Source: an uncultured Acidimicrobiales bacterium
GTDB taxonomy: Bacteria; Actinomycetota; Acidimicrobiia; Acidimicrobiales; Ilumatobacteraceae
Length of the DNA: 64,000 nt
Assembly: GCA_963738325.1 (NCBI GenBank)
Contig: CAVTWD010000015.1
Span: 30,767-94,766 of the forward strand
Direction of reading: 5' to 3'
Below, in pieces: positions 4,483 through 64,000 of this stretch (position 1 is the stretch's first letter; each line of letters starts with the position of its first letter). Made by a program: the position numbers and the translations under genes. The notes under the pieces were generated by a model. It did not search any database and was not told where the DNA came from. It was given only the letters and a program-made list of their open reading frames with translations.

Positions 4483-4950
4483 TGGCCGTGACCAAACGGG
4501 CCGCGCCGGTTCTCGACGACACGGATCGGGCCATCATCGAACAGCTCCAGGGCGACGGCCGGCTCCCCTACACGCGCCTCGGCCACGCGGTGGGCCTCTC
4601 GGAAGCGGCCGTGCGCCAACGCGTGCAGCGCCTCATCGACGGGGGCGTGATGCAGGTGGTGGCCGTCACCGATCCCCTCTCGCTCGGCCTGCGACGCATG
4701 GCGATGATCGGCCTTCGCACCGAAGGCGACGTCGTCCGCGCTGGCGGACAAGGTCAGCGCGCTGGATGACGTCGACTACGTCGTCGTGACGGCAGGCTCC
4801 TTCGACATCCTCGTGGAGGTCGTCGTCGAGGACGACGCCGCGCTGCTCGAGCTGGTGGGACGGCTGCGCTCGGTCCCCGGGGTGCGCTCGACCGAGACGT
4901 TCATCTACCTCCGCCTCGTCAAGCAGACTTATGCATGGGGGGCTCACTGA
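4482..4950 (+). pseudogene. Lrp/AsnC-family regulator (AldR-like) with an internal +1 frameshift near 4730
   Basis: The N-terminal HTH part (MAVTKRAAPVLDDTDRAIIEQLQGDGRLPYTRLGHAVGLSEAAVRQRV) is in one frame. The C-terminal RAM domain (ALADKVSALDDVDYVVVTAGSFDILVEVVVEDD...) is in the +1 frame. Its start overlaps the ALDH stop (TGATG). Confidence 0.65.
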
Positions 4951-4967
4951 TGCATGAAGGGGGATCC

Positions 4968-6098
4968 GTGTTGACCGTCGGCGTGCCCGCGGAGATCAAG
5001 ACGGCCGAGGGTCGTGTCGCCCTCACCCCCGACGGAGTGCGCGAGCTCGACCGCCACGGTGTTCCCGTGTTCGTGCAAGCCGGCGCGGGGGCCGGCGCGT
5101 CGATCACAGATACCGAGTTCGCGGCCGCCGGCGCCACCATCGTTCCCACCGCGGCCGACGCCTGGAGCCAAGAGCTCGTCGTCAAGGTCAAGGAACCGCA
5201 GGCGAGCGAGTTCGGTTACCTGCGTGACGACCTCAACCTGTTCACCTACCTCCATCTGGCCGCATACCCGGAGGTGGCCAAGGCTCTGCTGTCGGCGCGC
5301 ACGACGGGGATCGCCTACGAGACGGTGCAGCTCGACTCGGGCGCGCTGCCCCTCCTCGCTCCGATGTCGGAGGTCGCAGGGCGCCTGGCGCCGCAAGCCG
5401 GCGCCTATTTCCTCGAGGCCCACAAGGGGGGGCGGGGCGTGCTGCTCGGGGGCGCTCCTGGCGTGCGCCCGGCTCGGGTGGTCGTGCTCGGTGCCGGCAA
5501 CGTCGGATGGAACGCGGCCTGGATCGCGGCAGGGATGGAAGCCGAGGTCCTCCTCCTCGACAAGAACCTCGACCGCTTGCGCTGGGTCGACCAGATCCAT
5601 CGCGGTCGGATCATGACGCTGGCCTCCAACCAGGGAGCGGTCGAGCGGGCCGTGGCCGAGGCCGATCTCGTCATCGGAGCCGTGCTGGTGGCCGGGAGCC
5701 GCGCTCCGGTCGTGGTGAGCGAACCGATGGTCGGCGCGATGAAGGCGGGCGCGGTGATCGTCGACGTCGCCGTCGACCAGGGTGGTTGCATCGAGACCAC
5801 GCGCGAGACCACGCACAAGGATCCGGTCTACGAGCGCCACGGGGTGCTGCACTACGCGGTGGGCAACATGCCGGGCGCAGTTCCCCACACCTCCACCTAC
5901 GCGCTCACGAACGCGACGCTGCCCTACATCCTCTCGGTCGCGCTGCGCGGTCCGGCCGGGGCGGCCGCGGAGGACCCCGCGCTCGGCCATGGGTTCAACA
6001 CGGTGGGAGGCGCGGTCACGAACGCGCCTGTGGCCGACTTCCTCGGGCTGCCCTACGTCGAGCCGGAGGCCGCGCTCAGCGACGTTCGCACCACCTGA
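4968..6098 (+). CDS. ald: alanine dehydrogenase
   Basis: Full-length match to the Ald family (VGVPAEIKTAEGRVALTPDGV...VVLGAGNVG...). GTG start after a GAAGGGGGA SD. Confidence 0.9.
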   Translation: MLTVGVPAEIKTAEGRVALTPDGVRELDRHGVPVFVQAGAGAGASITDTEFAAAGATIVPTAADAWSQELVVKVKEPQASEFGYLRDDLNLFTYLHLAAYPEVAKALLSARTTGIAYETVQLDSGALPLLAPMSEVAGRLAPQAGAYFLEAHKGGRGVLLGGAPGVRPARVVVLGAGNVGWNAAWIAAGMEAEVLLLDKNLDRLRWVDQIHRGRIMTLASNQGAVERAVAEADLVIGAVLVAGSRAPVVVSEPMVGAMKAGAVIVDVAVDQGGCIETTRETTHKDPVYERHGVLHYAVGNMPGAVPHTSTYALTNATLPYILSVALRGPAGAAAEDPALGHGFNTVGGAVTNAPVADFLGLPYVEPEAALSDVRTT

Positions 6099-12230: not shown

Positions 12231-12239
12231 ACTTTAGGG

Positions 12240-13225
12240 CTTGAGCGGATAGGCGTTTCAGTTGGGGCTCCAGCGGTTTCGCCAGTCGATGAGCTTTGCG
12301 GTGAGTAGTACGGCGACCGCCAGGGTGAATTGGGCGAGTCGGTGGAGTGTTCGCCGGTCGGTGTTGCGGCGGAGTTGACCGAAGTTCGACAGCCACGAGT
12401 TTGTCCGCTCGTTCGGCCAGCGCAGCCCCATGGGAATGTTCGTGGTGCCCTCGCCGGCGTTGCGTTGGCGCTTGGTGGCGAGGCTCGCATCGTCAATCTG
12501 GCGCTCGGCGAGGCGTTGGCGAGTGACGCCACTGTCGTAGCCGCGGTCGAGCCACAACGTGTCGATCTCGGTGAGCAGACAGCGCCCGGCGGCGTCATCG
12601 AGGGTGGGTGCGAGCAGCACCGAGTCGTTGCGGTTGGCACCGTCGATCGTCCAGCCGATGGGCACCCCATGCCGTTCGGAGGCCACGGACCACTTCCAGC
12701 CCAACTTCCCACGATCGGTGGGGTTCGGGCCGGTCCCCTCACCACCGTAGGGAGCGTTGTGCAGCGACCCGTCGAGACTGACCTCGGACAGGTCCAGCCC
12801 GATGATCCGGTCGTAGTCGCCGATCGCTTCCTCTGCGATGGCGGCGAAGACCCCGGCGGCGATCCACTCGTCGCGGCGGTCGCGCACGGTCGTGTCGGAG
12901 ACCTCGCTGCCACACAGCCGCTCGGCGTCTTCCCACGAGCATCCCCTCGCCCACCGCACGAGCATCACCCCAAAGCACGCCCGGTCCGACGCCCGATGGC
13001 GGTGACAGCCGAGCGGATGGGTCACCTGCCGGACTGGGATCAGCGGCTCGACTGCTCGCCAGATCACCTCCACAACTTCGGGATCAAGTGCGCGCATAAT
13101 GGTGAAGACCTCCACTCGGTCGTTGTTCGTGTTCAGCAACCCCGATTCTCTCGGGGCCACCACAACGACCGGTGGATGGTCACCTCGTCGCGAACTACCT
13201 GGTCAAAGGCCATTTCGTCTACCCG
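12240..13225. mobile_element. IS5-family (IS427/IS1031-group-like) insertion sequence; boundaries approximate
   Basis: Single DDE transposase ORF. Imperfect terminal inverted repeats GGCGTTTCAGTTGG (12252) and CCTGGTCAAAGGCC (13198). CTTAG is present on both flanks (12226 and about 13232). Inserted immediately after the ddl stop. Confidence 0.5.
12258..13097 (-). CDS. IS5-family DDE transposase
   Basis: Shows GWKWSVASERHGVPIGW...ANRNDS and an N-terminal HTH (MRALDPEVVEVIWRAVEPLIP). The ORF could extend to 13163. Confidence 0.8.
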   Translation of the reverse strand: MRALDPEVVEVIWRAVEPLIPVRQVTHPLGCHRHRASDRACFGVMLVRWARGCSWEDAERLCGSEVSDTTVRDRRDEWIAAGVFAAIAEEAIGDYDRIIGLDLSEVSLDGSLHNAPYGGEGTGPNPTDRGKLGWKWSVASERHGVPIGWTIDGANRNDSVLLAPTLDDAAGRCLLTEIDTLWLDRGYDSGVTRQRLAERQIDDASLATKRQRNAGEGTTNIPMGLRWPNERTNSWLSNFGQLRRNTDRRTLHRLAQFTLAVAVLLTAKLIDWRNRWSPN

Positions 13226-13322
13226 CGCCGCCTCTTAGGACAAGTCCTGTTACCGTTGCTCAGAGACACGGCATCGTCGGAGTCGGGGCACGCGGGCGAG
13301 GCGGGGAGGCGGGGAGGCGGGG

Positions 13323-14612
13323 ATGTATAGGGCCACTGTGATTGGCATCGTCGCGACCATGACGGCGCTGGCACTGGCAGGATGCGGGAGCAAGGCAGCC
13401 ACCAGCGCGCCAGCAGCCACCAGCGCGCCAGCAGCCAGCACGACAACGGCACCTGCCAGCACGACAACGGCACCTGCCAGCACGACTGCAAGGTCTGCGG
13501 CCGCGCCATCCACGACCACGATGCCCCCGGTCATGAGCGCGTCCTCGGTGGCGCAGTTCGTGACGACCTTCTACAACCAGTATCTGGCCTGCCAGGGAAC
13601 GAACGCTGTTACCTGTTCCAGCAGCGTCGTGAACAAGTACGGCACGCCGAAACTCGACTCGTATTACACACCCGCAGCGGGCTACGAATATGACAGCGAC
13701 CCCATCCTGTGCGCCCAGGACTCCCCGACAGGGGTCCAGGTGTCAGGCGTGACGACGACGCCGAACACCGCTTCGGGAACGGTGAACGAGGAGGGCTTCG
13801 GCTCGGCGAACACGACCACTTTCGTAGTCGTCAACCAATCGGGCACGTTGAAAATCGACACCATCACCTGCAATCCGCCGTTGATGCCAGACAAGCAGCT
13901 CACGGGTGGGGGCGGTACCGGATCCACGGGCGGCTCGGCAACAAGCCTCGACGGCACGTACACGATCTCCCTGCCGCCGGGCGACGACAGCTGCGGCTCC
14001 CCGTCCTTGAGCGCGGAGACCCTCACCGTCAGCGGCACGACGGCGAGCATCACTGCGGTCGGCGGGCAAACCCCATTTCACGGCACAGCAACCACCGCAG
14101 GATCGACGTTCTCGATGCACATCACGAACGGCATCACCGGCCCCGGTGCCATCGTCATCGACCTCACCGGCAGCATCGAGCCGAACGGCGCTCTGTCGGG
14201 TCAGAGTGTGAACGGCGGCGTCTACCCGGGTGGCACGAACGGCTTCGGCTGTAGCTTTCCATTCACCGCCACCCGCACCTCGGCGAAAGCGGGACCACCG
14301 GCGAGCAGCGCGCCCGTCACCACTCCCTCAGCCGGTAGCGCCGCCCCCTGCACCCGAGCCGCGATCACGGCCGCCGCCCGGGCCGCCGCCGGAGCGGACT
14401 TCGACGGCCTGGCCGGCGGCACGGCGGCCTTCGGCTGCTCGGGCCGGTTCGCCTACACGTTCGCCACCGTCGGGTCGGGTAACACCGAGGTCGACGTCAC
14501 GATGCTGTTCATGGCGACCAACGGCACCTGGCAGTCCGCCGACCGGGGCATCTACTGCCAAGACGGCTCGGTACCTCGGGAGATCTATCGGCCCGCGTGC
14601 GAAACCCAATGA
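13323..14612 (+). CDS. lipoprotein of unknown function with an N-terminal Ala/Thr/Ser-Pro low-complexity linker
   Basis: Signal peptide with lipobox LALAGC, tandem ATSAPAA/STTTAPA repeats, and a Cys-containing C-terminal domain. A GGCGGGGA x3 repeat sits immediately upstream of the start. Confidence 0.7.
   Translation: MYRATVIGIVATMTALALAGCGSKAATSAPAATSAPAASTTTAPASTTTAPASTTARSAAAPSTTTMPPVMSASSVAQFVTTFYNQYLACQGTNAVTCSSSVVNKYGTPKLDSYYTPAAGYEYDSDPILCAQDSPTGVQVSGVTTTPNTASGTVNEEGFGSANTTTFVVVNQSGTLKIDTITCNPPLMPDKQLTGGGGTGSTGGSATSLDGTYTISLPPGDDSCGSPSLSAETLTVSGTTASITAVGGQTPFHGTATTAGSTFSMHITNGITGPGAIVIDLTGSIEPNGALSGQSVNGGVYPGGTNGFGCSFPFTATRTSAKAGPPASSAPVTTPSAGSAAPCTRAAITAAARAAAGADFDGLAGGTAAFGCSGRFAYTFATVGSGNTEVDVTMLFMATNGTWQSADRGIYCQDGSVPREIYRPACETQ
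13399..13500. repeat. short tandem direct repeats inside the lipoprotein linker (2 x about 21 bp and 2 x about 21 bp)
   Basis: ccaccagcgcgccagcagc occurs twice and cagcacgacaacggcacctgc occurs twice. Confidence 0.7.
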
Positions 14613-31119: not shown

Positions 31120-31204
31120 GCCCGCAGTCTGTCACCACTCCCTGTGATCTGACGCGGTTGAACGTCGCATGGCACCGCTCAGCCGCGCGGAATCACCAGC
31201 GCCG

Positions 31205-31937
31205 TCACTCCACGAGGCGGAGACCGGTGGGCGCGATGCTCGGCTCGGCTTGGGGCAGGTCGACGGCGAACTCCGTGCGGTGCCCGGGGAAGACGTGGGC
31301 GCTGAGCAGCACCGGCTTGCCGTCGGTGTCGCGCGTCACCCGTTCGCAGTGCAACACGGGCGACCCGGGCGGGATGCCGAGGCGCCGCCGCGTCGGCGGG
31401 TTCGGCGGCCGCGGCCCCGATGGTCTGCGTGGCCCCACCGAGCGGCACGGCCAGCAGCTCGTAGAACGGCGAACGCTCGACCGCGGCGCGCGAGAGACGC
31501 TCGGCCAGGGGCGCCGGGCACCACACGGTGACGAGCGCGAACGGCTCTCCGTCGGCGAGGTTGACGCGCTTGACCCGCAGCACCCGGTCGCAGCCGAGGA
31601 TCCTGCGCACCCGAGGGTCGGCGGGGACGAAGGCGAACTCCAACACGTTGCGCTCGGGGTGCACACCGATCGCTTCGAGCTGGGCCTCGATCGTCGCCAG
31701 CCGCCCGAGGCTCTGGCGCAGCGGATCACCGGCCACGAACCAGCCGACCCCCTGGCGAGCGTCGAGCAGGCCGTCGTCGCGCAGGAGCTCCAGCGCCCGC
31801 CGGATCGTGACGCGGCTGGCGTGGTAGGCCACCTGCAGCTCGGCCTCGCTCGGTAGCAGCCGGCCGGCCGGGAACTCGCCGCTCTCCACCCGCCGCCGCA
31901 GCGCGTCGGCGATCTCCCGGTAGCGGATGGTGCGCAC
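31205..31937 (-). pseudogene. GntR/HutC-family regulator (HTH plus UTRA) with a +1 frameshift near 31385
   Basis: The N-terminus (TIRYREIADALRRRVESGEFPAGRLLPSEAELQVAYHASRVTIRRALELL) is in one frame. The UTRA C-terminus (LGIPPGSPVLHCERVTRDTDGKPVLLSAHVFPGHRTEFAVDL) is in the next frame, after a GCGGCGGCG run. Confidence 0.65.
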
Positions 31938-31989
31938 GGCCGCCCGACCCGCCCGCCCCTCAGCGCTTCCGTGTCGTCGCGCGCCGGGC

Positions 31990-32797
31990 GCCTGGCCTCG
32001 GCGACGATGGCCACAGCCGCCTCGGGCGTGAGGGCGCGGAAGGTGACGGTCTCCTCCAGGAAGAGCCGGACCCGCTCGGCGTCGTGGTCGAGGTAGCCGA
32101 TGGACAGATCCTCGCCGGTGGTGAGCTCGAAGTCACCACCCCGCAGGCTGAGCACCACCGCGCAGGCGACGGCTGGCGCCCAGACGATCGGCCCGTCGAG
32201 CAACAGGCGGACGTGATTCAGCACGGGATAGCCGCCGTAGGCCGTCTCGGTGACGCCCGTGTACGGATCGGGCCCGAGGGCGATGGCGTACGGCCCGCCG
32301 ATGCCGGCTTCACGCAGCACGCCGATGGCTTGCGCCACCGCGGTGGGGAAGCGGTCGAAGTCGTCCGGCATCGGGATGGGCCGATGCGGGGTGGCCTCGG
32401 TGACGCCTTCGATGGCTCCCGGTCGGTAGCCGTTGAAGACGAGGTTGTCCTCGGCGAAGGCGATGCGACGCGACGCTTCGACGAGGGGGTCGAGGTCCGG
32501 GTCGGGCGCGCCGCGGTCGACGTCGTCGAGCACCGTGCGGGTGAGGGCGAACTCGGCCCGCAGCTCGATGAGCGGCTGGAGCCGCCGGGCGGCGGCGGAG
32601 GTCCCGGGCGCGGGTGTGTCGGCCAGCGGGGCGACGCGTCCGAGGTCGACCGCAGAGTGCGTCCAGCCGAGCGGCCCCGCGAAGTCGACGACCTTACGGG
32701 CGCCGAGGAAGGTGGCGAGGCGGCCTCGGGCTTCGTCGTCGATGACCGCCCAGGCCGTCTCGGTGATCGGCGCGATCTCCCGGTAGAGGTGGTTCAC
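31990..32797 (-). CDS. family-1 encapsulin shell protein (HK97 fold, Cfp29/linocin-like); 3' end undefined because no in-frame stop is present
   Basis: VNHLYREIAPITETAWAVIDDEARGRLATFLGARKVVDF...GYPVLNHVRLLLDGPIVWAPAVACAVVLSLRGGDFELTTGEDLSIGYLDHDAERVRLFLEETVTFRAL... matches M. tuberculosis Cfp29 throughout. A GTG start overlaps the cargo stop (GTGA). The ORF reads through into GntR, so a frameshift near the C-terminus is likely. Confidence 0.7.
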
Positions 32798-33192
32798 TCC
32801 GTCACCCCCGGCTTCAGGCTGCCCAGGCCGAGCGAGCCGCTGGTCGCAGCGGCGGGCCCTCCGCTGGCTTCGGCGGCGGCCTCGACCGCCACGATGTCCC
32901 CGGTCGTGAAGAGGTACGTGCGCAGGTGGCCGTCGAAGATGGGGTCGTGGCGCCGCAGCCATTCGATCGTCATGGCCGCGTGCTCCTTCTCCTCGTCGCG
33001 GTTGTGGCCGAGGACGGCGGCCAGAGAGTCGTCGGCTGTGGCGTCGACCCGCTGCGAGTACCAGTCCACGGCCTCGAGCTCTTCCTTGATGGAGGTGAGC
33101 GCGCGGTGGAGATCGATCGTGGAGCCCGACAGCTTCCCTTCGTCCTCGTGCAGGCCGTCGCTCGCCATGAACACCCTTTCTGGACTCGCCAC
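32794..33192 (-). CDS. encapsulated ferritin-like cargo protein (EncFtn) with a C-terminal targeting peptide
   Basis: EELEAVDWYSQRVDATADDSLAAVLGHNRDEEKEHAAMTIEWLRRHDPIFDGHLRTYLF resembles EncFtn. The C-terminal SGSLGLGSLKPG matches the encapsulin cargo-loading peptide consensus. Confidence 0.8.
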   Translation of the reverse strand: MASPERVFMASDGLHEDEGKLSGSTIDLHRALTSIKEELEAVDWYSQRVDATADDSLAAVLGHNRDEEKEHAAMTIEWLRRHDPIFDGHLRTYLFTTGDIVAVEAAAEASGGPAAATSGSLGLGSLKPGVTE

Positions 33193-33348
33193 TTGCTTCG
33201 GATCGTGCCGGGTCGGACACTACCTGCGCCCGGCAGAGGCGAAACCTGCCGAACTTCTGGCGGACTTCCGGTGACAACTTGTCTGCAACTTGTATTAGAC
33301 TGAGAGCGAAGCCGAATCAGAGCGAGCACTCGACCGAAAGGGGACAGC

Positions 33349-35637
33349 ATGGCCGTGACCGCAGGAACACCCATCGAGCTCGTCGAGCGCGTGTACGCCA
33401 CGCTTCTCGACCGGTTGGCGATCGGGCGGCGCCGCCTCGGGCGCGGACTCACCCTCACCGAGAAGATCCTCCTCAACCATCTCGACGATCCGGAGGGTCA
33501 GGGGCTCGAGCGGGGACGGAGCTACGCAGACTTCCGGCCGGACCGCGTCGCCATGCAAGACGCCACCGCGCAGATGGCCCTCCTGCAGTTCATGACCGCG
33601 GGCCTGGCCGAGGTGGCGGTGCCGAGCACGGTGCACTGCGACCACTTGATCCAAGCTCGGGCAGGCGCCGACATCGACCTCAAGTTCGCGCTCGACATCA
33701 ACAGCGAGGTGTACGAGTTCCTGCGCTCGGTCTCCGCGAAATATGGCATCGGCTTCTGGAAGCCCGGCAGCGGGATCATCCACCAGGTCGTGCTCGAGCA
33801 CTACGCCTTCCCCGGCGGGATGATGATCGGCACCGACAGCCACACCCCCAACGCCGGAGGGCTCGGCATGGTGGCCATCGGCGTGGGTGGCGCGGACGCG
33901 GTCGACGTGATGACGGGGTTCCCGTTCAACGTGCGCTGGCCCAAGGTGATCGGCGTCCACTTGACAGGTTCGTTGTCGGGTTGGTCGGCGCCGAAGGATG
34001 TCATCCTTCGCGTGGCCGAGATCCTCACCGTGGCCGGTGGCACGGGCGCCATCGTCGAGTACTTCGGTCCCGGCGCCGATTCCATCAGCGCCACGGGGAA
34101 GGCGACGATCTGCAACATGGGCGCCGAGATCGGCGCCACCACGTCGGTGTTCCCGTTCGACGACAACATGGTCGCCTACCTCAAGGCGACGGGACGCGAA
34201 GCGATCGCCGATGCCGCCACGAAGGTGGTCGCCGACCTCCGGCCCGACGACACCGTCGTCGCAGATCCCGCCTCGGCCTACGACCGCGTGGTCGAGATCG
34301 ACCTCGACACCCTGCGGCCACTGATCAACGGGCCCGACAGCCCCGACCTCGCCCATCCCGTGAGCGAGCGTAGGGGCGTGGGCGAAGGAGCACGGTGTGC
34401 CGGTCGAGGTCAGCTCCGCCTTGATCGGGTCGTGCACGAACTCGTCTTACGAGGACATCACGCGCGCCGCGTCGATCGCCCGCCAGGCCGCGGCCAAGGG
34501 GTTGCGGGCCCGGACGCAGCTGCTCATCACGCCTGGTTCCGAGCAGGTGCGGGCCACCATCGAGCGCGATGGCCTCCTGGCCGACCTCGAGGCCATCGGC
34601 GGCGAGGTGCTCGCCAACGCCTGCGGACCGTGCATCGGGCAGTGGGAGCGCACCGACCTCGACCCGTCGAAGGTCAACACGATCGTCAACAGCTACAACC
34701 GCAACTTCCCGAAGCGCAACGACGGCAACGCCAACACCAAGGCGTTCGTCACGTCGCCCGACGTGGTGATCGCGTACGCCCTGTCGGGCACGCTGGAGTT
34801 CGACCCCGTGTCCGACACGCTCCGCAACGACGACGGGGTGGAGGTCACGCTCGACCCGCCGGTCGGTGAGATCCTCCCGGCCAGGGGCTTCGACCCCGGG
34901 CAGAGCGGGTTCCTCGCTCCCCCGGCCGACGGCTCGGGCGTCTCCGTGGTCGTCGACCCGGCGAGCGAACGCCTCCAGCTCCTCGATGCCTTCCCGGCCT
35001 GGGACGGTGGGGACTACCAAGAGCTCCCCGTGCTCATGAAGGCGCGGGGCAAGTGCACGACGGATCACATCTCGGCCGCGGGGAAATGGCTGACCTACCG
35101 CGGCCACCTCGAGAACATCTCGGGCAATCTCTTCCTCGGCGTGGTCAACGCCTTCACGGGTGCGGTCGGGGAAGGCAAGGACCACCGCGACGGAGGCACT
35201 CGTTCGTACCCCGACATCGCGAAGGGCTACTCCGAGGCGGGCATCGCCTGGTGCGCGGTGGGCGACCAGAACTACGGCGAAGGGTCCTCGCGTGAGCACG
35301 CCGCGATGGAGCCGCGGTTCCGCAACGGCCGCGTGATCTTCGCCCGGTCCTTCGCCCGCATCCACGAGACGAACCTCAAGAAGCAGGGGCTGCTGCCGCT
35401 GACGTTCTCCGACCCGGCCACCTACGACCTGATCGACGAGGAGGATCGGATCTCGGTGCTCGGCCTGGCCGATCTGGCCCCGGACGTGCCCGTGCGCTGC
35501 AAGATCCACAAGCCCGACGGCACGACCGTCGACTTCGAGTGCACCCACACGTTCTCACCAGAGCAGATCGAGTGGTTCCAGCGCCGGCTCGGCGCTCAAC
35601 ATCATCCGCGGCCGCGCCGGACGTTAAGGAGCCGGCC
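33349..35637 (+). pseudogene. acn: aconitate hydratase (mitochondrial/AcnA-type) with two +1 frameshifts (about 34375 and about 35575)
   Basis: N-terminal domains are in the 33349 frame, the swivel domain in the 34397 frame ([26 protein letters not shown]...), and the true C-terminus (AGSALNIIRGRAGR*) in a third frame. Confidence 0.7.
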
Positions 35638-35767
35638 GAGCGAAGCTCCAAGGATGAGGGTTCCCAGGGGCTCTTCGCGCGGAGCTCGGTCCGGCTTGGC
35701 CGGTCGAGGCGAAGCTCCAAGGAGGGCGTTTCCAAGCGGGGAAGCTCTGCTTCTCCCCTTTTGACTC

Positions 35768-37203
35768 TCAATCCGTCCCCGGGCGGCGGTGAAGCTCGGC
35801 GTCGGGGTCGCCCTTGTACCCGGGCGGCAAGGTGAGGGCGAGCTCCGCAGCGGTGGGCTCGTGGTGCTTGTGGGCCTCCGGCGGAAGGAGGTCGGCGATC
35901 GCCTCCATGATCCGCTCGGTGTCCTTGTCGATGCTCTTGTACTTGAGGTCCACCGGTGGCCCGACTCGCACCGTGATGAGCGGCGGGCTCGTGACGTTCG
36001 TGATGTTCGGCAGGCGACTGCGGCGCGGCCACACCTTCTCGGTGCCCCAGAGGCCCATGGGGATCACCGGGACATGGGTGAGATGGGCGAGCCGGGCGGC
36101 CCCCCAGCGGCCCTTCAGCTTGGGATCGAAGAACGCCTTGCCCCTCGGGATCGTGCCTTGAGGCATGAGCGCCACCATCTGCCCGGCCTCCAGCGCGGCC
36201 GCCGCTTCGCGAAGCGGATCGTCGCTGCCCGTCCCCCGATCGACACGGATGCCGCCCATGGCTCGGGCCAGCGGCCCGATGACCGGGGCGTCGAACACCT
36301 CCTTCTTGCCGAGGAAGCGCGCCGGGCGCCCGACCTGCGCGAATCGCCAGGGTCATGGCGGCGGCGTCGAAATACGACCGGTGGTTGGCCACCAGGATGA
36401 CGCCGGCCCGATCGAGGCACGCGATCGGTGCCCTTGATGTCGAAACGGGCGTACGGCATGAGCTCTGGGCGGGAGAAGAGCATGCCCAACCGCTGGGGCT
36501 CGACGTTGAGGAGGGGGATCTTGGGCACGCCGGCGGGCACGTCAAGGTGAAGGCGGGGCCATCGACGGGCGGTAGCCATGACCATCATCCTCGGGTCAGG
36601 GTTCACGACCACGGGGTGACCGACGGCCGCGAGCAGCGGGGTGTCGTAGAAGCTGTCCGAGTAGAACCAGCTCTCGGCCAAGTCGACGCCGTGCTCCTTG
36701 GCCCACTGCCGCACCGCGTCCCGCTTCCCGTTGGCCCACACGAACGGCCCCACGATGCTTCCGTCGTAGGTGCCATCGGGGTTGACGCCGTAGCGGGTAG
36801 CCACCACGTCGTCGAAACCGAGCTCGTCGGCCAGCGGCTTCACCAGATCGAACGGCGTCGTGGTGGCGAGCACGAGGAGCCGTCCCGCTGGCGCGGTGCT
36901 CGGTGAACAGGCCCTTGGCGTACGGCTGGATCATGCCCACCAGCACCTCGGCAGCCTCCCCTGCCGCGGCCTGCACCGCGGCCCGCGGGCGACCGCGTCG
37001 ACAACGACGCCGCCTGGCGGGCCAGCGCCATCGACGGGATGCGTCTCGCCCACCGTGTTGAACAGCCGGTAGAGCGCGTTCTCGCCCGGGAAGGCACGGC
37101 CGGTCACCACGCCGGCCTTCCGGAGCGCCTCGCTCAGGACGGGGCCACTCGCCCCGGACAGCAGGGTTCGATCAAGGTCGAAGAAAGCGGCACCGATGAC
37201 CAT
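35768..37203 (-). pseudogene. HAD-IB hydrolase / lysophospholipid acyltransferase fusion, broken into at least 4 frames
   Basis: Pieces are spread over three reading frames. The HAD N-terminus is MVIGAAFFDLDRTLL. The middle is IPSMALARQAAS, then LLVLATTTPFDLVKPLADELGFDDVVATRYGV...SDSFYDTPLLAAVGHPVVVNP. The acyltransferase part is GVILVANHRSYFDAAAM, then ...FDAPVIGPLARAMGGIRVDRG... Confidence 0.6.
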
Positions 37204-37270
37204 GGTCGCACCGTAGTCCTCCACCACGGACCACGGCCCGAGGCACGCGTCGAACCGGGCTCGTGCGACT

Positions 37271-37297
37271 CCCGACGGGGAAAGGCCCTGGTTGGGG
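37271..37297. other. strong hairpin (11-bp perfect stem AGGCCCTGGTT / AACCAGGGCCT, loop GGGGG) in a divergent intergenic region
   Basis: Lies in the 298-bp gap between the HAD-acyltransferase start (37203, minus strand) and the carboxyltransferase start (37502, plus strand). An AT-richer stretch follows. Confidence 0.4.
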
Positions 37298-37501
37298 GAA
37301 CCAGGGCCTCTCAACCCAGGAGCCCACGCGATCGGGGGAATCGCATTGCGGACCCCGAGACGATGTGGGCCTTGGGGGTGGCGCCACGTCGTTCTTGTGA
37401 AAGTATGCACGATTTCGCTGTCTCGCACAACCCTTTGTTACCGACAAGTATCCTGACCTGGACGAACGAGACGGGGGCGCCCGGCTCGTAGGCTCCGGAC
37501 G

Positions 37502-38850
37502 ATGCCCCCGGTCGGGTTACGGGTCCGCACTCCCGGCGCTGTCAGCGTGGCCGTGGGCGAGATCGGCGGCCGGTCGGCCGTGGTGGTGGAGATCGAGGCC
37601 AGCGAGCATCTGGGCGCGCTGTCGTCGATCGCCTCGGAGAGCCTCGAGCTGGCCGCCCGCCTGGCGCGGGCCGAACGCCTCCCGCTCGTGGTGATCCTCG
37701 CGTCGAGCGGCGCCGACCTCACCGAGGGTATGGCCGCGCTCCATGGCTGGGGACTGGCCGCTCGTGCCCTGGCCGACTGCTCCGGCATCGTGCCCGTGCT
37801 GATGTCCGTCACGGGCCCGGCGGTGTCGGGCCCGGCGCTGCTGCTCGGCCTCGCCGACCACGTCGTGATGACCGAGTCGGCCTACGCGTTCGTCAGCGGC
37901 CCGACATGGTCGCCGAGTTCACCGGCGTCCAGGTCGACAACGAGCGAGCTCGGGGGGCGCGCACCGCGCACGCCCGCTACACCGGCGTGGCGTCGCTCGT
38001 CGTGCACGACGACGAGGCGGCCCGGGAGGCGCGTCGGCGACCTCCTCGCCTACCTCCCGCCGCACAACGACGCCGAACCCCCGCGTGGCCGCACCGACGA
38101 CCCGCCCGACCGCCTGACGCCCGAGGCGGGGGTGCTGTTGCCGCCGGCGCCGACTGGCAGCTACGACGTCCGCGCCGTGATCGCGAGCGGTGGCCGACGA
38201 GGCGAGCTTGCTCGAGCTGCGCGCCCGCTGGGCCCCGAACCTCGTCACCGCGTTCGCCACGATCGCCGGCCGGCCCGTCGGCATGCGTCGCGAACCAGCC
38301 GCTCGCCATCGCCGGCACCCTCGACATCCCGGCGTCGCAGAAGGGCGCCCGTTTCGTCGCCTTCTGCGACGCCTTCAACCTGCCGATCATCACCCTGGTC
38401 GACACCCCGGGCTTCTACCCCGGCAAGGACCTCGAGTGGCGGGGGATGATCCGCCACGGCGCCCAGCTCGTCTTCGCCTACGCCCGCGCCACGGTGCCCC
38501 GCGATCTGCGTGATCCTGCGCAAGTCCTATGGCGGCGCCTACATCGTCATGGACTCGAAGACGATGGGCAACGACCTCTGCCTGGCCTGGCCCGGCGCCG
38601 AGCTGGCGGTCATGGGGGCGAAAGGTGCGGTCGAGATCCTGCACCGGCGGGCAGCGCCGGAGGAGCGGGCGCGGCGCGAGGCCGACTACGAGGAGCGCCT
38701 CCTCAACCCGTACATCGCCGCCGAGCGGGGCTACGTCGACGCCGTGATCGACCCCGCCGAGACCCGTCGCGAGGTCGCGCAGGCGCTCGAGCTGCTCGCC
38801 GCAAGCGGGAGCGGCTCGTCGCCCGCAAGCACGACAACTCGCCGCTCTGA
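37502..38850 (+). pseudogene. acyl-CoA carboxylase carboxyltransferase (AccD/PccB-like) with about 6 frameshifts
   Basis: Segments alternate between three frames: ...[19 protein letters not shown]...[17 protein letters not shown]...[28 protein letters not shown]...[48 protein letters not shown]...[18 protein letters not shown]...KHDNSPL*. Confidence 0.65.
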
Positions 38851-38932: not shown

Positions 38933-40201
38933 GTGCCTGACACCATCACCATCATCGACAACCGCACCGGAAAGAAGGTCACCGTCCCCATCGACAACGG
39001 TGTGTTCCCGTCGTCCGCCCTCCGGGAGCTCGACCCGGACCTGCGGATGTACGACCCCGCGTTCCTGTCGACCGCGGCCTGTGCATCCGCCATCACCTAC
39101 CTCGACGGCGACGCCGGCATCCTGCGCTACCGCGGTTACCCGATCGAGCAGCTCGCCGAGCAGTCGACCTACCTCGAGGTCGCGTACCTCCTGCTCAACG
39201 GCGAGCTGCCCGACGCGGCGCAGCTCGCGGAGTGGACCTACGACGTCACCCACCACACGTTCATCCACGAGAACGTGCGCAAGCGGTTCATGGAGGGCTT
39301 CCACTACGACGCCCACCCGATGGGCATGCTCGTATCGGCCGTCGCCGCCCTCTCCACGTTCTACCCCGAGGCCAAGGACATCTTCGACACCGACAACCGG
39401 GACAAGCAGATCCTGCGCCTGATCGCCAAGATGCCCACGCTCGCGGCCTGCTGCCACCGCTTCAGCGTCGGGATGCCGTTCGTGTATCCCGACAACAAGC
39501 TGTCCTTCACCGGCAACTTCCTCAACATGATGTGGAAGGTCGGCGAGTACGAGCTCGACCCCGTCCTCGAGCGGGCGCTCGACGTCCTGTTCATCCTCCA
39601 CGCCGACCACGAGCAGAACTGCGGCACCACCGCCATGCGCGTGGTCGGCTCGGCCCACGCCGACCCCTACTCCGCGTGCGCGGCCGCGGCGGCGGCGCTG
39701 TACGGGCCGCTGCACGGCGGCGCCAACGAGCAGGTCGTGCGCATGCTCACCGAGATCGGCTCGATCGACAACGTGCCCGCGTTCGTCGAGGACGTGAAGG
39801 CCGGCAAGGGCCGACTCATGGGCTTCGGCCACCGCGTCTACAAGAACTACGACCCCCGCGCCACGATCATCAAGCGCACCGCCGACGAGGTCTTCGAGGT
39901 CACGGGCAGGAACCCGCTGCTCGACATCGCGCTGAAGCTCGAAGAGGCCGCCCTCTCCGACGACTACTTCAAATCACGCAAGCTCTACCCGAACGTCGAC
40001 TTCTACTCGGGCCTCATCTACCAGGCGATGGGCTTCCCGATGGAGATGTTCACGGTGCTGTTCGCCATCCCCCGCACGGCGGGCTGGCTGGCGCACTGGG
40101 AGGAGCTGCTCGCCGACAAGGACCAGAAGATCGCCCGGCCCCGCCAGGCATACAGCGGCGCTGAGTTGCGCGATTACGTGCCGCTCGCATCCCGTCAGTA
40201 A
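38933..40201 (+). CDS. gltA: citrate synthase
   Basis: Intact, with GFGHRVYKNYDPRA and the His/Asp catalytic context. GTG start after an AAAGGGGAG SD. Confidence 0.9.
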   Translation: MPDTITIIDNRTGKKVTVPIDNGVFPSSALRELDPDLRMYDPAFLSTAACASAITYLDGDAGILRYRGYPIEQLAEQSTYLEVAYLLLNGELPDAAQLAEWTYDVTHHTFIHENVRKRFMEGFHYDAHPMGMLVSAVAALSTFYPEAKDIFDTDNRDKQILRLIAKMPTLAACCHRFSVGMPFVYPDNKLSFTGNFLNMMWKVGEYELDPVLERALDVLFILHADHEQNCGTTAMRVVGSAHADPYSACAAAAAALYGPLHGGANEQVVRMLTEIGSIDNVPAFVEDVKAGKGRLMGFGHRVYKNYDPRATIIKRTADEVFEVTGRNPLLDIALKLEEAALSDDYFKSRKLYPNVDFYSGLIYQAMGFPMEMFTVLFAIPRTAGWLAHWEELLADKDQKIARPRQAYSGAELRDYVPLASRQ

Positions 40202-50552: not shown

Positions 50553-51071
50553 TCAGGCGTCGTCGGGCTCGGGCCGCCGACGGGTCCACACCAGCGCAAC
50601 CGCACCGAGGCCGACGAGGGCGACACCAACCCCGCCGAGCAACGCGGTGTCGCCGCCCGTGGCCGGCAACCGAGCGGGCAGCGCCTTCACGGTCGCCTTG
50701 GACGGCGACTTCGGCACGTGCGCGTGGGGATGGGCCGCGGGGGCGGCGGCCGGGGTCGTGGGCACCGCCGTCGTCGGCGTCGTCACGACGGTCGGCTCGG
50801 TGGGCGGCGTCGTCACCTCGGTGGGCGGCGTCGTGACCTCGGTGGGCGGCGTGGTCGGCTCGGTCGCCTCGGTGGGCGTCGTCGCCTCCGTCGGCGTCGT
50901 CACCTCGGTCTCCAGTGGGTTGGCCTCGGTGGGCGCGGTCTGCGCCCAGGCGCTGGTGGCCAAGGCCCCGACGCCGGCGACACCGAGCGTCGCCGCCACC
51001 ATCATCTGAACTCCGGCTCGAACCAGCCTCCGCCGGCCGGTCCGGCCGTGTTGCTCGCCCGCCTGCTCCAT
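50553..51071 (-). CDS. LPXTG-type cell-wall-anchored surface protein with TTPPTEV repeats
   Basis: Signal peptide, Thr/Pro/Glu repeats, then LPATGG followed by a hydrophobic stretch and RRRPEPDDA. Confidence 0.6.
   Translation of the reverse strand: MEQAGEQHGRTGRRRLVRAGVQMMVAATLGVAGVGALATSAWAQTAPTEANPLETEVTTPTEATTPTEATEPTTPPTEVTTPPTEVTTPPTEPTVVTTPTTAVPTTPAAAPAAHPHAHVPKSPSKATVKALPARLPATGGDTALLGGVGVALVGLGAVALVWTRRRPEPDDA
50740..50930. repeat. tandem repeats of about 27 bp encoding TTPPTEV units
   Basis: ggcggcgtcgtgacctcggtgggc-like units repeated about 5 times. Confidence 0.6.
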
Positions 51072-56143: not shown

Positions 56144-58324
56144 GTGCCACCGATGCGGTTGCTCGGGCGAGTCCTCGGCTCGGCGTGGCTGGTGGCGTTG
56201 GTCGCGACCTCAGCCGCGGGCGCCGCAGTGGCAGACCAGCTCCAGGTGGTCGACGTCAACGCCTCGGCCGCGCCCGGTGCCCGCATCGTGGTGGCCACGC
56301 CCGCCCAGTTCAGCGGCCGCACGCTCACCTCGGCAGAGTTCCTGGCCACCCAAGGCGGCACCACCATCCCCGTCCAGGCGACACCGATCCCACCGGCCTC
56401 ACGCCGGGTGGCGTTGGTGATCGACAACGGCGACGGCATCGATCAGCACACCTTCGACCTGGAGCGGGGCGCGGCGACGGAGTTGATCCGCCGGCTCGAC
56501 AACGGGACGTGGGTCGCCGTGCTCGCTTCGGTGACCCCCTTCGGCGTCCAGGCCCCCACCCAGGACCGCGCCAAGGCCGTCGCCACGCTCACCACCTTGA
56601 AGCGGGGGGGCCTGCGCCGCCTCGACGCCGCCGCCGGCGTGGCGGCCTCGCTCGTGCAGCCTGGGACTCCGATCACGAAACGGGTGGTGGTGTTCTCGGG
56701 CGCGGCTGGAGGCGGCCTCGACGGCGTGGCCGCCGTACCTGGCGGGCGACTCGACGTCGTCTCGGTGGCGGGCGGGGTGTCGCCGACGATTCCGCTCGCC
56801 GGCATCCGGGTGCTCACCGCAGGGACGAATCTCACCGCCACCGTCGACGGCATCGCCAGCCAGCTCACCGGGCAGTACGAGCTCGCTCTCCAGACCCGCC
56901 CACCGAGCACACAGCCCATCGACCTCACGCTGGTCGCCGATGGCCGGACGTTCAGCGCCCGTGTCGATGTGCCCGCGCTGACGGCCACCACGGTCGTCCC
57001 GCCGACGAGCGCCCCAACCGCGCCCGCGCCGACAACTGTCGCGACGCACGACGACCTCGTCTCGTCGCCCGGGTTCCTCGTGTTCCTCGCGGTCGATGCG
57101 GCCGCCATTGCCTTGTTGCTGCTCTCCCTCGCGCTGCGCCGGCACCACCGCAAGAGCCGTCACCGTCCGGTGCGCAGCCGGCCCGCCCCGCCGACACGGG
57201 AGGAGGAACCTGCGCCTGTCCTCGCCGCCGAGGGAGGGGCGGTCGAGGCGCCTGAGTCCGCCCCGCCCGGGCGAGAGGAGACCACCCGGGCCGAGCCCGA
57301 GCGCGAGGTGAAGCCGGCAAGGGCAAGTGGAGCGGTGGCGGGGCTGTCTTCGCCGCTCGAAGTCCTCGCCAGTGTGGCGACCGTCGCCGTGGCGCAACAG
57401 GAGGCTCCCGCGGAACCCGAGGAAGAGCCGGTCGCCGAACCCGAGGAAGAGCCGGCGCCCGAAGCGGAGGACGAACCAGTCTGCGAGCCCGAGCAAGGGC
57501 GCGTCGCAGAGGAACTCGCCTCGGCGCCGGAGCCCGAAGAAGAGTCGGCGGAGCTCGAGCCCGAAGAAGAGACGGCGCCTGTAGCGGAAGAAGCACCGGT
57601 CTCCGCGCCCGAAGAGCCTGTCGCCGAGGAAGTCGCGGCGGAGCCCGAGCCCGAGGAAGAGCCCGCCGCCGAGGCGGAGGAAGCGACCGTCCCAGAGCCC
57701 GAGCAAGAGCCCGCCGCACAAGCGGAGCAAGTCACGTCGGCCTCCGAGCCGGACGAAGCGATCGCCCCTGAGCCCGAGGAGGAGCCCGCCCTCGAGCCCG
57801 AGCCCGTCGAGGCGGTCGCGACGGCGATCGGCCTGGCGGCCGCGACCGCGCCGGCCGAGGCAACCGCGCCCGTCGATGACGACGTCCAGCTCGAAGGCCA
57901 TGTCCTCGTCGCGTGGCGGCGGGATGATGCCACCGAAACCCGGCCGCGCCGACGCCGCACCTCCCTGGTCGACCTCGCCCTCGTCGACGATGGCTGGCAC
58001 CACGAGACCGACATCGACACCGACAGCGAGCCCGTCGACGCCATCGAACCGGACGACGTCGCCCTCACCGAGCGGGCCCACCCCATCCATTCGACGATTG
58101 CGCGCCACGACCCAGACAGCGACCTGAGGGCCGAGCCCTCCGTCCCTCCGACCCCCGGCACCCGCCCCCCGGGACGCCCGGCGGTGATCCGGCGCTACCT
58201 GATCGGAGCCGTGCCGTCGCCGCCCGACCACAACGGCAGCTACGCGGAGTGGCCTCGGGCATTCTCGGGCGTGGCCGACACCACCACCGAGCCGCGGAGG
58301 CCGTCCGGTTCCACTCGCTCGTGA
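56144..58324 (+). CDS. secreted/membrane protein: N-terminal VWA-like domain, a central TM helix, and a long acidic Pro/Glu/Ala repeat tail
   Basis: Signal peptide, then ...RRVALVIDNGDGID..., then a TM (FLVFLAVDAAAIALLLLSLAL), then EPEEEPAAE-type repeats over about 200 aa. Confidence 0.55.
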   Translation: MPPMRLLGRVLGSAWLVALVATSAAGAAVADQLQVVDVNASAAPGARIVVATPAQFSGRTLTSAEFLATQGGTTIPVQATPIPPASRRVALVIDNGDGIDQHTFDLERGAATELIRRLDNGTWVAVLASVTPFGVQAPTQDRAKAVATLTTLKRGGLRRLDAAAGVAASLVQPGTPITKRVVVFSGAAGGGLDGVAAVPGGRLDVVSVAGGVSPTIPLAGIRVLTAGTNLTATVDGIASQLTGQYELALQTRPPSTQPIDLTLVADGRTFSARVDVPALTATTVVPPTSAPTAPAPTTVATHDDLVSSPGFLVFLAVDAAAIALLLLSLALRRHHRKSRHRPVRSRPAPPTREEEPAPVLAAEGGAVEAPESAPPGREETTRAEPEREVKPARASGAVAGLSSPLEVLASVATVAVAQQEAPAEPEEEPVAEPEEEPAPEAEDEPVCEPEQGRVAEELASAPEPEEESAELEPEEETAPVAEEAPVSAPEEPVAEEVAAEPEPEEEPAAEAEEATVPEPEQEPAAQAEQVTSASEPDEAIAPEPEEEPALEPEPVEAVATAIGLAAATAPAEATAPVDDDVQLEGHVLVAWRRDDATETRPRRRRTSLVDLALVDDGWHHETDIDTDSEPVDAIEPDDVALTERAHPIHSTIARHDPDSDLRAEPSVPPTPGTRPPGRPAVIRRYLIGAVPSPPDHNGSYAEWPRAFSGVADTTTEPRRPSGSTRS
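57330..57800. repeat. imperfect tandem repeats (about 18-27 bp, gagcccgaggaagagccg-like) encoding the acidic EPEEEP tail
   Basis: Repeated at least 12 times with variation. Confidence 0.6.
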
Positions 58325-62292: not shown

Positions 62293-62308
62293 CTTCGCAC
62301 GCTACCGA

Positions 62309-62983
62309 TCAACGTCCGACGTAGTGCGCACGCGGGCGGAAGCGGCCCGGAGCCTCGCCGCACCCCTCGAGCGCGTGGGCGATCCATCCGGCCGTACGAG
62401 CGATGGTGAAGATGGCCTCACCCGCATCCTCGGGCATGGCCGCGGCGAAGCCGAGCACCGCCAGGGCGAAGTCGATGTTCGGTTGGATGGGCGCTCGCCG
62501 ACGGCGCGGGGGTCGCCATCCCGGTAGAGCGGGTGGCCGAATCCCGGGTAGGCGCCGTGCAGGCGCAACGGAGATGGTGCCTCGAAGCGCCTCGCCGCCG
62601 GCCGGCAGGACGAGCCGGGGCGTGCGGCCGTCACCAGGGGGCGCCAACCCGTCCACCATCGTCGAGATGAGTGCCCGGGCACACGCGATGACCGCGAGCG
62701 GGCGCAGATCCGAGCGCGACGGATCGTCGGCGGCGGCGACATCCACCAGCAGGCGGAGGCGATCGAGAAGATGCATCGCGTTAGGGGTGCGGTGAGAGCT
62801 GCCTTCCCACGGGCCGGCACGAGCGGGCAGCACTCCGCCCCAGAGCAGCTCGGCGACCTGCTCGAAGGTGGCGCGGCGAGCCAGACCCGTGGCGTCGTGG
62901 CCCCGGTAGCGTAGAGCGTGGCCGTCGATCGATACCGCCCCTGCAGCGAGGTAAGCCCGTCGTGGGGGGCCGGCCAACGACAT
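62309..62983 (-). pseudogene. short citrate-synthase-family paralog, internally frameshifted and lacking the central region
   Basis: ...LRYRGHD...FEQVAELLWGG..., then (other frame) LHGAYPGFGHPLYRDGDPRA, then PNIDFALAVLGFAAAMPEDAGEAIFTIARTAGWIAHALE. Confidence 0.5.
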
Positions 62984-63037
62984 CCGGTCCGGGCGGGCTC
63001 CACCACGGAGGCGGGAGAGCCGGGTAGCGTCGCCGCC

Positions 63038-64000
63038 GTGGTTTCGCCGCGCCGACCCCCTGCGCGGCTGGGTCGGGGCACGCTCACCGCGGCCGTGTTG
63101 GTCCTCGTCGCGGCCCTCACGAGCTGCACCTCCGCCGCCAGCCAGGCCGAGACGCGACGAGCGGCCGCCGGAGCCATCACGACCGGCCGCTACGTGCCCG
63201 TGGTGCCGACGCGCGTGGCTGACACCCGCCGCGCCTTTGGGACGTCGCCCGCGGGACGGCTGCGCGCCAACGTGGCAGTGACGCTGGCGGTCACCGGGCG
63301 TCGCGAGGTGCAGGTGCCCTCGTCGGTCACGGCCGTCGTGCTGGGGGTCGTGTCCGTGGGCGCGTCGGCGCCGTCGTACGTCACCGTGTGGCCGGCAGGC
63401 GCGCCACGCCCCAACGCCTCCAATCTCAACGTCGTCAGCCCCGGTCAGGCGGTGGCCGATCTGGTGACCTCGCGGCTCTCGACCTCGGGACAGCTGTCGC
63501 TGCTGAGCAGCGCGCCGGCCGACCTGGTCGTCGACCTCTACGGCTACTACGAGCCGGCGAGCGGCGCGGTGACGGCCGGGCGCACGGTCGCCATCACACC
63601 GACGCGTGCCTACGACTCGCGCAGCACGGGCGGCGCGCTCGGAGCCGGGCAGACCCGGGTCATCCCGCTTCCGGCCTCGGCCGTGCCGGCGGGCTCCAGC
63701 GCCGCGGTGCTCAACCTCACCGTCACCCAAACGAGGGCGCCGGGGTTCTGGACGATCTTCCCCACCGCGAGCCGAGGCGGCCCCGTGCCGACGACCTCGA
63801 ACCTGAACGTGGCGGGTCCGGGGCGCACCGTCGCCGTCCAGGCGATCGTGCCGGTCGGTGCCGACCGCACGGTGAAGGTCTTCAGCTCCGGTGGGGGCCA
63901 CGCGATCGTCGACGTCTTCGCGTACATCACGGGCGCGACCACACCGGCCTCCACCGCCGGCCTGTTCGTCCCGCTCGCCGCCCCCGTCCGCTTCGCCGAT
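63038..64000 (+). CDS. secreted lipoprotein with repeated RV.DTR / NL(N)V.PG modules (partial, runs off the window end)
   Basis: GTG start, signal peptide with lipobox LTSC. Repeats such as RVADTR...SNLNVVSPGQ... and ...RAYDSR...SNLNVAGPGR... are typical of actinobacterial cell-surface repeat proteins. No stop before 64000. Confidence 0.5.
   Translation, partial: MVSPRRPPARLGRGTLTAAVLVLVAALTSCTSAASQAETRRAAAGAITTGRYVPVVPTRVADTRRAFGTSPAGRLRANVAVTLAVTGRREVQVPSSVTAVVLGVVSVGASAPSYVTVWPAGAPRPNASNLNVVSPGQAVADLVTSRLSTSGQLSLLSSAPADLVVDLYGYYEPASGAVTAGRTVAITPTRAYDSRSTGGALGAGQTRVIPLPASAVPAGSSAAVLNLTVTQTRAPGFWTIFPTASRGGPVPTTSNLNVAGPGRTVAVQAIVPVGADRTVKVFSSGGGHAIVDVFAYITGATTPASTAGLFVPLAAPVRFAD

Follow-up and report, generated by a model that had tools for sequence, protein, structure and literature searches.

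Programmed frameshifting and slippage, as described for prfB, dnaX, IS elements and the poly-A tracts of endosymbionts, need conserved slippery or homopolymeric sites, usually with a single event per gene that is conserved among orthologs. Real pseudogenes, besides losing their reading frame, gather stop codons and deletions, and their conserved sites undergo amino-acid changes. Frameshift-causing indels are retained in long-read metagenome-assembled genomes (MAGs), and nanopore bins below ~40-fold need short-read polishing (PMC9262707). Regarding the error spectrum, PacBio CLR reads are reported to bear ~8% insertions against 3% deletions (bioRxiv 10.1101/2021.08.23.457338).

In the window, the whole stretch of 64,000 nucleotides analysed here, three consecutive conserved genes are interrupted by frame disruptions and are followed by an intact citrate synthase. 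The features are as follows:

33349..35627, plus strand: aconitase, mitochondrial-type, ~758 aa after correction, with +1 insertions near 34369 and 35582.
35768..37203, minus strand: HAD-hydrolase/acyltransferase fusion, ~476 aa after correction, with +1 insertions near 37041, 36998, 36890, 36405 and 36342.
37204..37501: intergenic gap of ~300 bp between the HAD-acyltransferase and AccD-like genes, at the position of a LysR gene in relatives.
37502..38850, plus strand: AccD-like carboxyltransferase, ~448 aa after correction, with 8 indels by ortholog and profile alignments.
36341..38801: core of the indel-dense patch, with 13 indels in 2.46 kb (5.3/kb) by ortholog and profile alignments.
38936..40201, plus strand: citrate synthase, intact, bordering the patch on its downstream side and used as internal control.

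When single orthologs and ortholog profiles were aligned to the DNA with frameshifts allowed, 15 single-base indels were called between 34369 and 38801, two in the aconitase, five in the HAD-acyltransferase and eight in the AccD-like carboxyltransferase, and the same frame switches were recovered independently by a composition-only GC3 hidden Markov model. All 15 lesions are 1 nt in size, and the corrected reading paths carry no in-frame stop codons. The AccD-like gene has deletions near 37904, 37958 and 38800 and insertions near 37944, 38032, 38183, 38286 and 38503, including a compensating pair formed by the GAG[C]GAG insertion near 37944 and the G7-to-G6 deletion near 37958; once this pair is removed, the conserved ELGG motif returns. 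The indel density reaches 2.7/kb over 33349-38850 and 3.4/kb over 34369-38801, compared to ~0.22/kb (~13 shifts) in the remaining window, a local excess with a binomial P of 1e-9 to 6e-11. When the same ortholog method was applied to ~13.5 kb of non-focal sequence, including a 4.5-kb gltB without a shift, only 2 shifts were found.

The extreme local density of disruptions reported by the initial annotation is thus borne out, with 15 indels relative to its ~12, and its description of mostly +1 insertions with a few -1 shifts agrees with the 22 insertions and 6 deletions counted window-wide (P = 0.004). The two frameshifts that it placed in the aconitase correspond to two +1 insertions by ortholog alignment, and the HAD-acyltransferase that it saw broken into at least four frames carries five. 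As for the AccD-like gene, the multiple breakage stands but the count of about six rises to eight by ortholog and profile alignment; likewise, the clustering in four consecutive genes holds only in part, as three genes are broken within 33349-38850 and the next one, citrate synthase, is intact.

After correction, the three products are complete: the alignments span the full ortholog length, and the corrected paths are free of in-frame stops, truncations and internal deletions. The aconitase aligns along its whole length (100%) with intact orthologs of 751-771 aa, at 87% identity and without in-frame stops, and precomputed Pfam domains on these 87%-identical orthologs match the aconitase family (PF00330/PF00694). 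The HAD-acyltransferase, ~70% identical to its orthologs, shows both Pfam domains at full length, HAD (PF12710) at residues 6-190 (89.9 bits) and Acyltransferase (PF01553) at residues 253-383 (82.7 bits); a scan of the corrected protein against genome and metagenome collections gave 160 related loci, none above 72% identity. The AccD-like protein, also ~70% identical to orthologs, matches Carboxyl_trans (PF01039) as one stretch over residues 13-445 (419 bits). These family matches all exceed the curated cut-offs. Regarding the flanking enzymes, the 420-residue citrate synthase query is 100% identical to a database protein of 422 aa (P0121), and the isocitrate dehydrogenase of the window is confirmed as intact, in agreement with the initial annotation of a broken aconitase between two intact flanks. 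If real, such a broken aconitase with both of these enzymes intact would be an odd metabolic arrangement.

The comparison with orthologous loci that had been proposed there was carried out, and the orthologs are intact, with a conserved gene order. This order, GntR-EncFtn-encapsulin-aconitase-HAD/AT-AccD-citrate synthase-PhzF, is common to the relatives, indicating that the locus is orthologous and not a decaying duplicate. In 105 of 109 related loci, a gene of ~930 bp for a LysR-type regulator lies between the HAD-acyltransferase and AccD-like genes. No LysR remnant was found when it was sought in 37204..37501 of the window, a gap that sits in the middle of the indel-dense patch. The absence of LysR at the patch centre may be the sign of a true genomic event here.

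Frame disruptions are also present outside the patch, where at least 10 unrelated genes carry indels of this type. A Pfam domain spans the junction in the Lrp regulator (~4739), FAR-HAD (~17825), Zn-ADH (~18460), NADP oxidoreductase (~42640), P450 (~60490) and at the second shift of GT1 (~55705), and the shifts of GntR (~31385) and PhzF (~41360) are confirmed by orthologs. In addition, shifts are probable at the encapsulin 3' end, there without an in-frame stop, in Pat (~53333) and at the first GT1 position (~54930), and a citrate-synthase-like paralog probably bears at least two. Two frame switches of the composition model, at 50641 and 58292, were discarded as gene boundaries, the acyl-CoA dehydrogenase being complete and QueF being a separate gene. 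The frame change near 32797 between EncFtn and encapsulin is likewise a normal gene boundary in the window; what looked like a shift stems from the locus of a relative used for comparison (L003, GCA_964616935.1), whose own EncFtn/encapsulin gene looks frameshift-fused. Many of the relatives in public collections are long-read MAGs.

Judged from the sequence, the frame disruptions are best explained as consensus errors of the assembly and not as mutations of the organism, a reading to which we assign a probability of roughly 0.88. The suggestion of the initial annotation that this is indel-rich, poorly polished assembly sequence fits the indels of only 1 nt, the error class extending window-wide and the lack of substitutional decay. 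Accordingly worded as a model, residual single-base indels at ~0.2/kb would persist throughout the consensus of the long contig, apparently of 327.5 kb, to which the window belongs in this uncultured Acidimicrobiales metagenome-assembled genome, and a stretch of 2.5-4.4 kb (36.3-38.8 kb, tailing back to 34.4 kb) with weaker consensus evidence would rise to 3-5 indels/kb. The local spike may be caused by low read support, by a failed polishing chunk or by a minor structural-variant branch, the last being suggested by the LysR gene missing at the patch centre. The source platform was probably a long-read one, as the spectrum is dominated by insertions and mostly non-homopolymeric, resembling residual error of the PacBio CLR type more than the homopolymer deletions classic for nanopore.

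As an alternative, a recent and real pseudogenisation may be considered, in which the loss of LysR left the flanking genes and the aconitase dispensable, and true frameshift mutations followed. The regulator present in 105 of 109 related loci has gone here without a remnant, right at the centre of the densest cluster, and the shifts are uncompensated overall, so the proteins would be non-functional as written. Against it stands the retention of conserved residues, for which columns at least 97% conserved among orthologs were scored, with leave-one-out of the intact orthologs and the citrate synthase as controls. The three broken genes together keep 723 of 730 such columns (394/396 in the aconitase, 156/158 in the HAD-acyltransferase and 173/176 in the AccD-like protein), and their miss rate is in line with that of intact orthologs scored by leave-one-out (median 0.5-0.6%) and with that of the unbroken citrate synthase, which keeps 208 of 208. 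Downstream of the first shift of each gene, 5 of 481 conserved columns differ: three are the ELG residues of the AccD-like protein, its only misses, restored by the compensating pair, one reflects ambiguity in indel placement and one is real. Neutral decay matching 13-15 indels would predict ~7-55 changes by indel-to-substitution ratio and span, an expectation resting on an assumed value of this ratio, compared to the single real change among these near-invariant residues; at 1 indel per 2 substitutions, with the wider 4.4-kb span and all five raw differences, P = 0.27 and the test loses power.

Pseudogenisation is also opposed by the substitution rates, as no lineage-specific acceleration relative to the citrate synthase was found for the AccD-like protein (z = 0.08), the HAD-acyltransferase (z = 1.28) or the aconitase (z = 1.43), and by the absence of in-frame stops, truncations and internal deletions. 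Moreover, an explanation specific to this locus leaves at least 10 unrelated shifted genes elsewhere in the window unexplained, and the loss of aconitase beside its two intact partners would be metabolically odd. The genuine decay that the initial annotation had offered as its other option is therefore disfavoured, with no stops, no excess of changes at conserved residues and no acceleration, and true pseudogenes at this locus appear improbable.

A combined history, in which the LysR deletion was followed by a very recent indel-only burst that inactivated the aconitase, HAD-acyltransferase and AccD-like genes before substitutions could accrue, is more doubtful still. More generally, a real localised burst of indel mutagenesis without substitutions, for example by error-prone synthesis repairing a double-strand break or the LysR deletion, would be in line with the tight clustering of the indels, 13 of which fall within 2.46 kb around a point of structural difference from the relatives, and lesions consisting only of indels are conceivable from a specialised process. 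However, a cell that lost the aconitase and two neighbours together would need to survive in numbers high enough to be assembled, and the identical lesions across the window argue for a technical cause. We know of no bacterial process that adds ~5 one-base insertions per kb, chiefly away from homopolymers, while leaving no substitutions, and such a burst appears very improbable. The combined history, if true, would mean that a hitherto unknown mutagenic process with a bias to insertions acts locally and that the TCA cycle lacks this aconitase. Were the indels real, the locus would hint at an unknown mutational process yielding indels only, which the evidence speaks against.

No motif is common to the sites beyond a weak enrichment of GCG, found within 9 nt of 15/15 sites, where the 95th percentile of random sets is 13. 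An insertion signature of GG-to-GCG (or CC-to-CGC) from the first alignments was dropped, because profile placement leaves the inserted base ambiguous, and at several sites the ortholog consensus favours another base (A, G or T). An association with homopolymers was also rejected, the longest run within 2 nt averaging 1.87 compared to 2.25 at random positions, with a G6 run at only one of the 15 sites; unusual GC leading to drop-out of short-read polishing was discarded as well, since the patch GC of 0.69-0.70 is the same as in the rest of the window.

Programmed recoding, by which ribosomal +1/-1 frameshifting or transcriptional slippage would restore the frame and leave the genes functional as encoded, agrees with the mostly +1 direction of the shifts but is effectively refuted at the sequence level by the missing motif and the missing conservation: the sites show neither a slippery heptamer nor a homopolymer tract nor a zero-frame stop, none of the collected orthologs (38 for the aconitase, 82 for the HAD-acyltransferase and 68 for the AccD-like protein, each taken as one ORF that spans 85% or more of the query) carries a shift, and five to eight events in one gene would be without precedent as well as very inefficient.

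If the disruptions are consensus errors, such indels divide about a quarter of the genes in the window, and annotation would list three genes of central metabolism or lipid metabolism as fragments or pseudogenes. Work on this genome that reconstructs metabolism, counts pseudogenes, estimates completeness or analyses selection would then be misled, for example towards a falsely broken TCA cycle. The cluster is a quality flag, not biology. The conserved-residue retention test can be reused, as it tells frameshifts derived from errors from real decay without the need for reads.

Comparing the locus with the known systems, a one-nucleotide frame change within a gene is shared with the programmed frameshifting and slippage of prfB, dnaX, IS elements and endosymbiont poly-A tracts; unlike those cases, there are 2-8 events per gene here, with no motif and no ortholog conservation. 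The frameshifting of adjacent conserved genes recalls the pseudogene clusters of reductive genomes, such as Mycobacterium leprae and recent host-restricted pathogens, whereas the stops, deletions and conserved-site decay of M. leprae-type clusters are not seen in the genes of the window. Classic nanopore errors are deletions in homopolymers, and the sites of the window differ from them in being predominantly insertions outside homopolymers, nearer to the PacBio CLR spectrum. Over 2.5-4.4 kb the indel rate climbs ~12- to 15-fold, more steeply than a uniform error model would predict. The closest likeness is with the errors of long-read assemblies (PMC9262707; proovframe, 10.1101/2021.08.23.457338), in which 1-nt indels scattered genome-wide split conserved genes, homolog-guided frame correction gives full-length products and the damage is worse where read support is poor.

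GC content is 70% across the whole window and does not set the patch at 33349-38850 apart, and the nearest matches of the window genes come from MAGs of uncultured Acidimicrobiales and Ilumatobacteraceae. The genes at the locus are ordered GntR, EncFtn, encapsulin, aconitase, HAD-acyltransferase, AccD-like carboxyltransferase, citrate synthase and PhzF, and the same order is seen in relatives (a JGI contig and the related locus L002, along with a tblastn comparison), indicating at the sequence level an orthologous locus rather than a stray duplicate. The translation of the adjacent citrate synthase (420 residues), an intact internal control, is 100% identical to the database protein P0121 (422 aa). 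In the window (31150-35627), as in the JGI contig and in the related locus L003 (GCA_964616935.1, CAZTVJ010000055.1), aconitase is directly preceded by GntR, EncFtn and encapsulin, which are oriented divergently from it; in L001 and L002, aconitase is adjoined by GntR only, without the encapsulin pair. Genes of an iron-storage nanocompartment thus adjoin the gene for an iron-sulfur enzyme.

A hidden Markov model based on composition alone (GC by codon position) revealed many same-strand frame switches in the window, with the greatest density at 36.3-38.9 kb, and a frameshift-aware dynamic programme, aligning protein to DNA with single orthologs and profiles from 38-82 orthologs, placed indels in three genes:

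33349-35627, + strand, aconitase: two +1 insertions near 34369 and 35582
35768-37203, - strand, HAD-acyltransferase: five +1 insertions near 37041, 36998, 36890, 36405 and 36342
37502-38850, + strand, AccD-like carboxyltransferase: insertions at 38032, 38183, 38286 and 38503, deletions at about 37904 and 38800, plus a compensating pair

The compensating pair, which the frameshift alignment itself does not pay for, consists of the insertion of a C near 37944 (GAG[C]GAG) and the loss of one G from a run of seven near 37958 (G7 to G6); undoing both members converts NERARGART to NEELGGART, regaining the invariant ELGG motif of the family. In total, 15 indels are spread over three genes, not the four consecutive ones proposed by the initial annotation, which listed two frameshifts in aconitase, at least four frames in the HAD-acyltransferase and about six shifts in the AccD-like gene, where the compensating pair brings the count to eight.

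These 15 shifts in 4.4-5.5 kb correspond to 2.7-3.4 per kb, against about 13 in the 58.5 kb outside the focal region (0.22 per kb), so that the extreme local density of frame disruptions first noticed at 33349-38850 is far beyond chance (binomial P 1e-9 to 6e-11). This contrast is not a detection artefact, as the same ortholog approach gives only two shifts over about 13.5 kb outside that region, a sample that takes in the shift-free gltB (4.5 kb). Window-wide, insertions outnumber deletions by 22 to 6, in agreement with the earlier impression of mostly +1 insertions with few -1 shifts.

At the centre of the densest part (36341-38801, 13 indels) lies the intergenic region (300 bp) between the HAD-acyltransferase and AccD-like genes, where a LysR-type regulator gene is present in 105 of 109 related loci. 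The minimum start-to-start distance between both genes in the relatives is 1171 bp; the window gap (37204-37501) measures about 300 bp, and no LysR remnant was found in it or elsewhere in the window. It is possible that the patch consensus follows a minor LysR-less structural variant with few reads, that the deletion is itself an assembly artefact, or that it is real and its co-location with the error patch a coincidence.

After removal of the 1-nt indels, the reading paths of the three focal genes contain no in-frame stops and align across the full ortholog length. Over 100% of its length, the corrected aconitase shares 87% identity with intact proteins of 751-771 aa, and the Pfam domains of the corrected HAD-acyltransferase and AccD-like proteins are complete, Carboxyl_trans being recovered in one stretch (419 bits) in the latter. 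Of the columns with 97% or more conservation across orthologs, aconitase keeps 394/396, HAD-acyltransferase 156/158 and AccD-like 173/176, matching intact orthologs (leave-one-out median of 0.5-0.6% broken columns), and the intact citrate synthase keeps 208/208.

If the shifts were real, the sequence past the first shift of each gene could not be under selection. Downstream of these first shifts, 5 of 481 conserved columns differ: three (the ELG residues) are accounted for by the compensating pair, one depends on indel placement and one is real. Under neutral accumulation, substitutions should outnumber indels several-fold, as known from bacterial mutation-accumulation studies; assuming such an excess, 13-15 real indels are calculated to entail 7-55 broken conserved residues, by the ratio and span assumed. 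Moreover, branch lengths relative to citrate synthase are normal (z = 0.08 for AccD-like, 1.28 for HAD-acyltransferase and 1.43 for aconitase).

An indel-only spectrum without substitutions is the look of noisy long-read consensus errors and the opposite of natural decay, and the focal frameshifts are, with a probability of about 0.88, an assembly or consensus artefact and not a biological feature. Indels without accompanying decay thus favour the first option of the initial annotation, an assembly rich in indels that includes a poorly supported stretch. Its second option, genuine decay, as a recent pseudogenisation linked to the LysR loss, is improbable given the stop-free corrected paths, the single real change where 7-55 were predicted and the normal branch lengths. 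A localised indel-only mutational burst, to which such a spectrum could also be ascribed, deserves even less credence. Programmed recoding is excluded for practical purposes by two to eight events per gene, by a shift in none of the collected orthologs of the three genes (each a single ORF, at least 85% of the query) and by no slippery or homopolymeric motif being common to the sites. The artefact is of value in flagging the quality of this MAG, and also as a worked example of how frameshifts due to error can be told from real decay without recourse to reads.

Further shifts lie elsewhere in the window, where "Pfam" denotes a domain spanning the junction of the frame-fused protein:

~4739, Lrp: Pfam
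~17825, FAR-HAD: Pfam
~18460, Zn-ADH: Pfam
~31385, GntR: insertion, ortholog-confirmed
~41360, PhzF: deletion, ortholog-confirmed
~42640, NADP oxidoreductase: Pfam
~53333, Pat: probable
~54930, GT1 (first): probable
~55705, GT1 (second): Pfam
~60490, P450: Pfam

The single shifts previously called in Lrp, FAR-HAD, Zn-ADH, NADP oxidoreductase, P450, GntR and PhzF are therefore borne out, together with the second of two in GT1; the first remains probable, like those in Pat, the encapsulin 3' end and the citrate-synthase paralog. The encapsulin (31945-32797, - strand) has a complete Linocin_M18 domain and no in-frame stop; with its frame uninterrupted for 690 codons and running on through the GntR gene, it probably carries an indel close to the 3' end (about 31.95-32.0 kb). 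Upstream of it, EncFtn (32794-33168) is intact and ends in a cargo-loading-peptide-like GSLGLGSLK. In the short citrate-synthase-like paralog (62302-63180, - strand), a minimum of two shifts is implied by the conserved GAYPGFGHPLYRDGDPRA motif being out of frame with the remaining ORF. As the composition model scores the whole stretch as non-coding, the paralog may have suffered more damage than the other genes, or may be truly degenerate. The model's frame switches at 50641 and 58292 were rejected as frameshifts, being ordinary gene boundaries.

The lowest-GC stretch of the window (12236-14558, 0.66), possibly of foreign origin, repetitive or poorly assembled, includes a short ORF (13381-13519) with repeated QHDNGTC and SSHQRA units and a segment (13520-14558) with 8 stops in its best composition frame. 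No family match was obtained for two low-complexity translations whose GC3 pattern resembles that of coding sequence: GVVTSVGGVV-type repeats downstream of acyl-CoA dehydrogenase (50642-51006) and a leucine/glycine-rich one at 57158-57731 (- strand).

The indel sites are mostly outside homopolymers, with only one in a G6 run, and the longest homopolymer within 2 nt averages 1.87, compared to 2.25 at random positions. A GG-to-GCG signature seen in the first placements was discarded, as profile-based placement changed the extra base, or left it ambiguous, at several sites. All 15 of the 15 focal sites have a GCG within 9 nt on the gene strand (the 95th percentile being 13 when 15 positions are drawn at random), a weak signal that may reflect basecaller or polisher bias, or chance. 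In L003, a 288-aa gene (4641-5507) annotated as EncFtn-like plus Linocin_M18 has an EncFtn start, out-of-frame filler and then an early-ending encapsulin; it appears from its sequence to be a frameshift fusion, suggesting a consensus error of the same class in another public Acidimicrobiales MAG.

Among the relatives found in public collections, many are long-read MAGs. The source of the window was probably sequenced on a long-read platform. Low-coverage nanopore MAGs retain frameshift-causing indels, polishing being needed below about 40-fold coverage (PMC9262707), and PacBio CLR reads carry about 8% insertions versus 3% deletions (preprint 10.1101/2021.08.23.457338). Being insertion-dominated and non-homopolymer, the window errors are closer to the PacBio CLR spectrum and resemble less the classic nanopore errors, which are homopolymer deletions.
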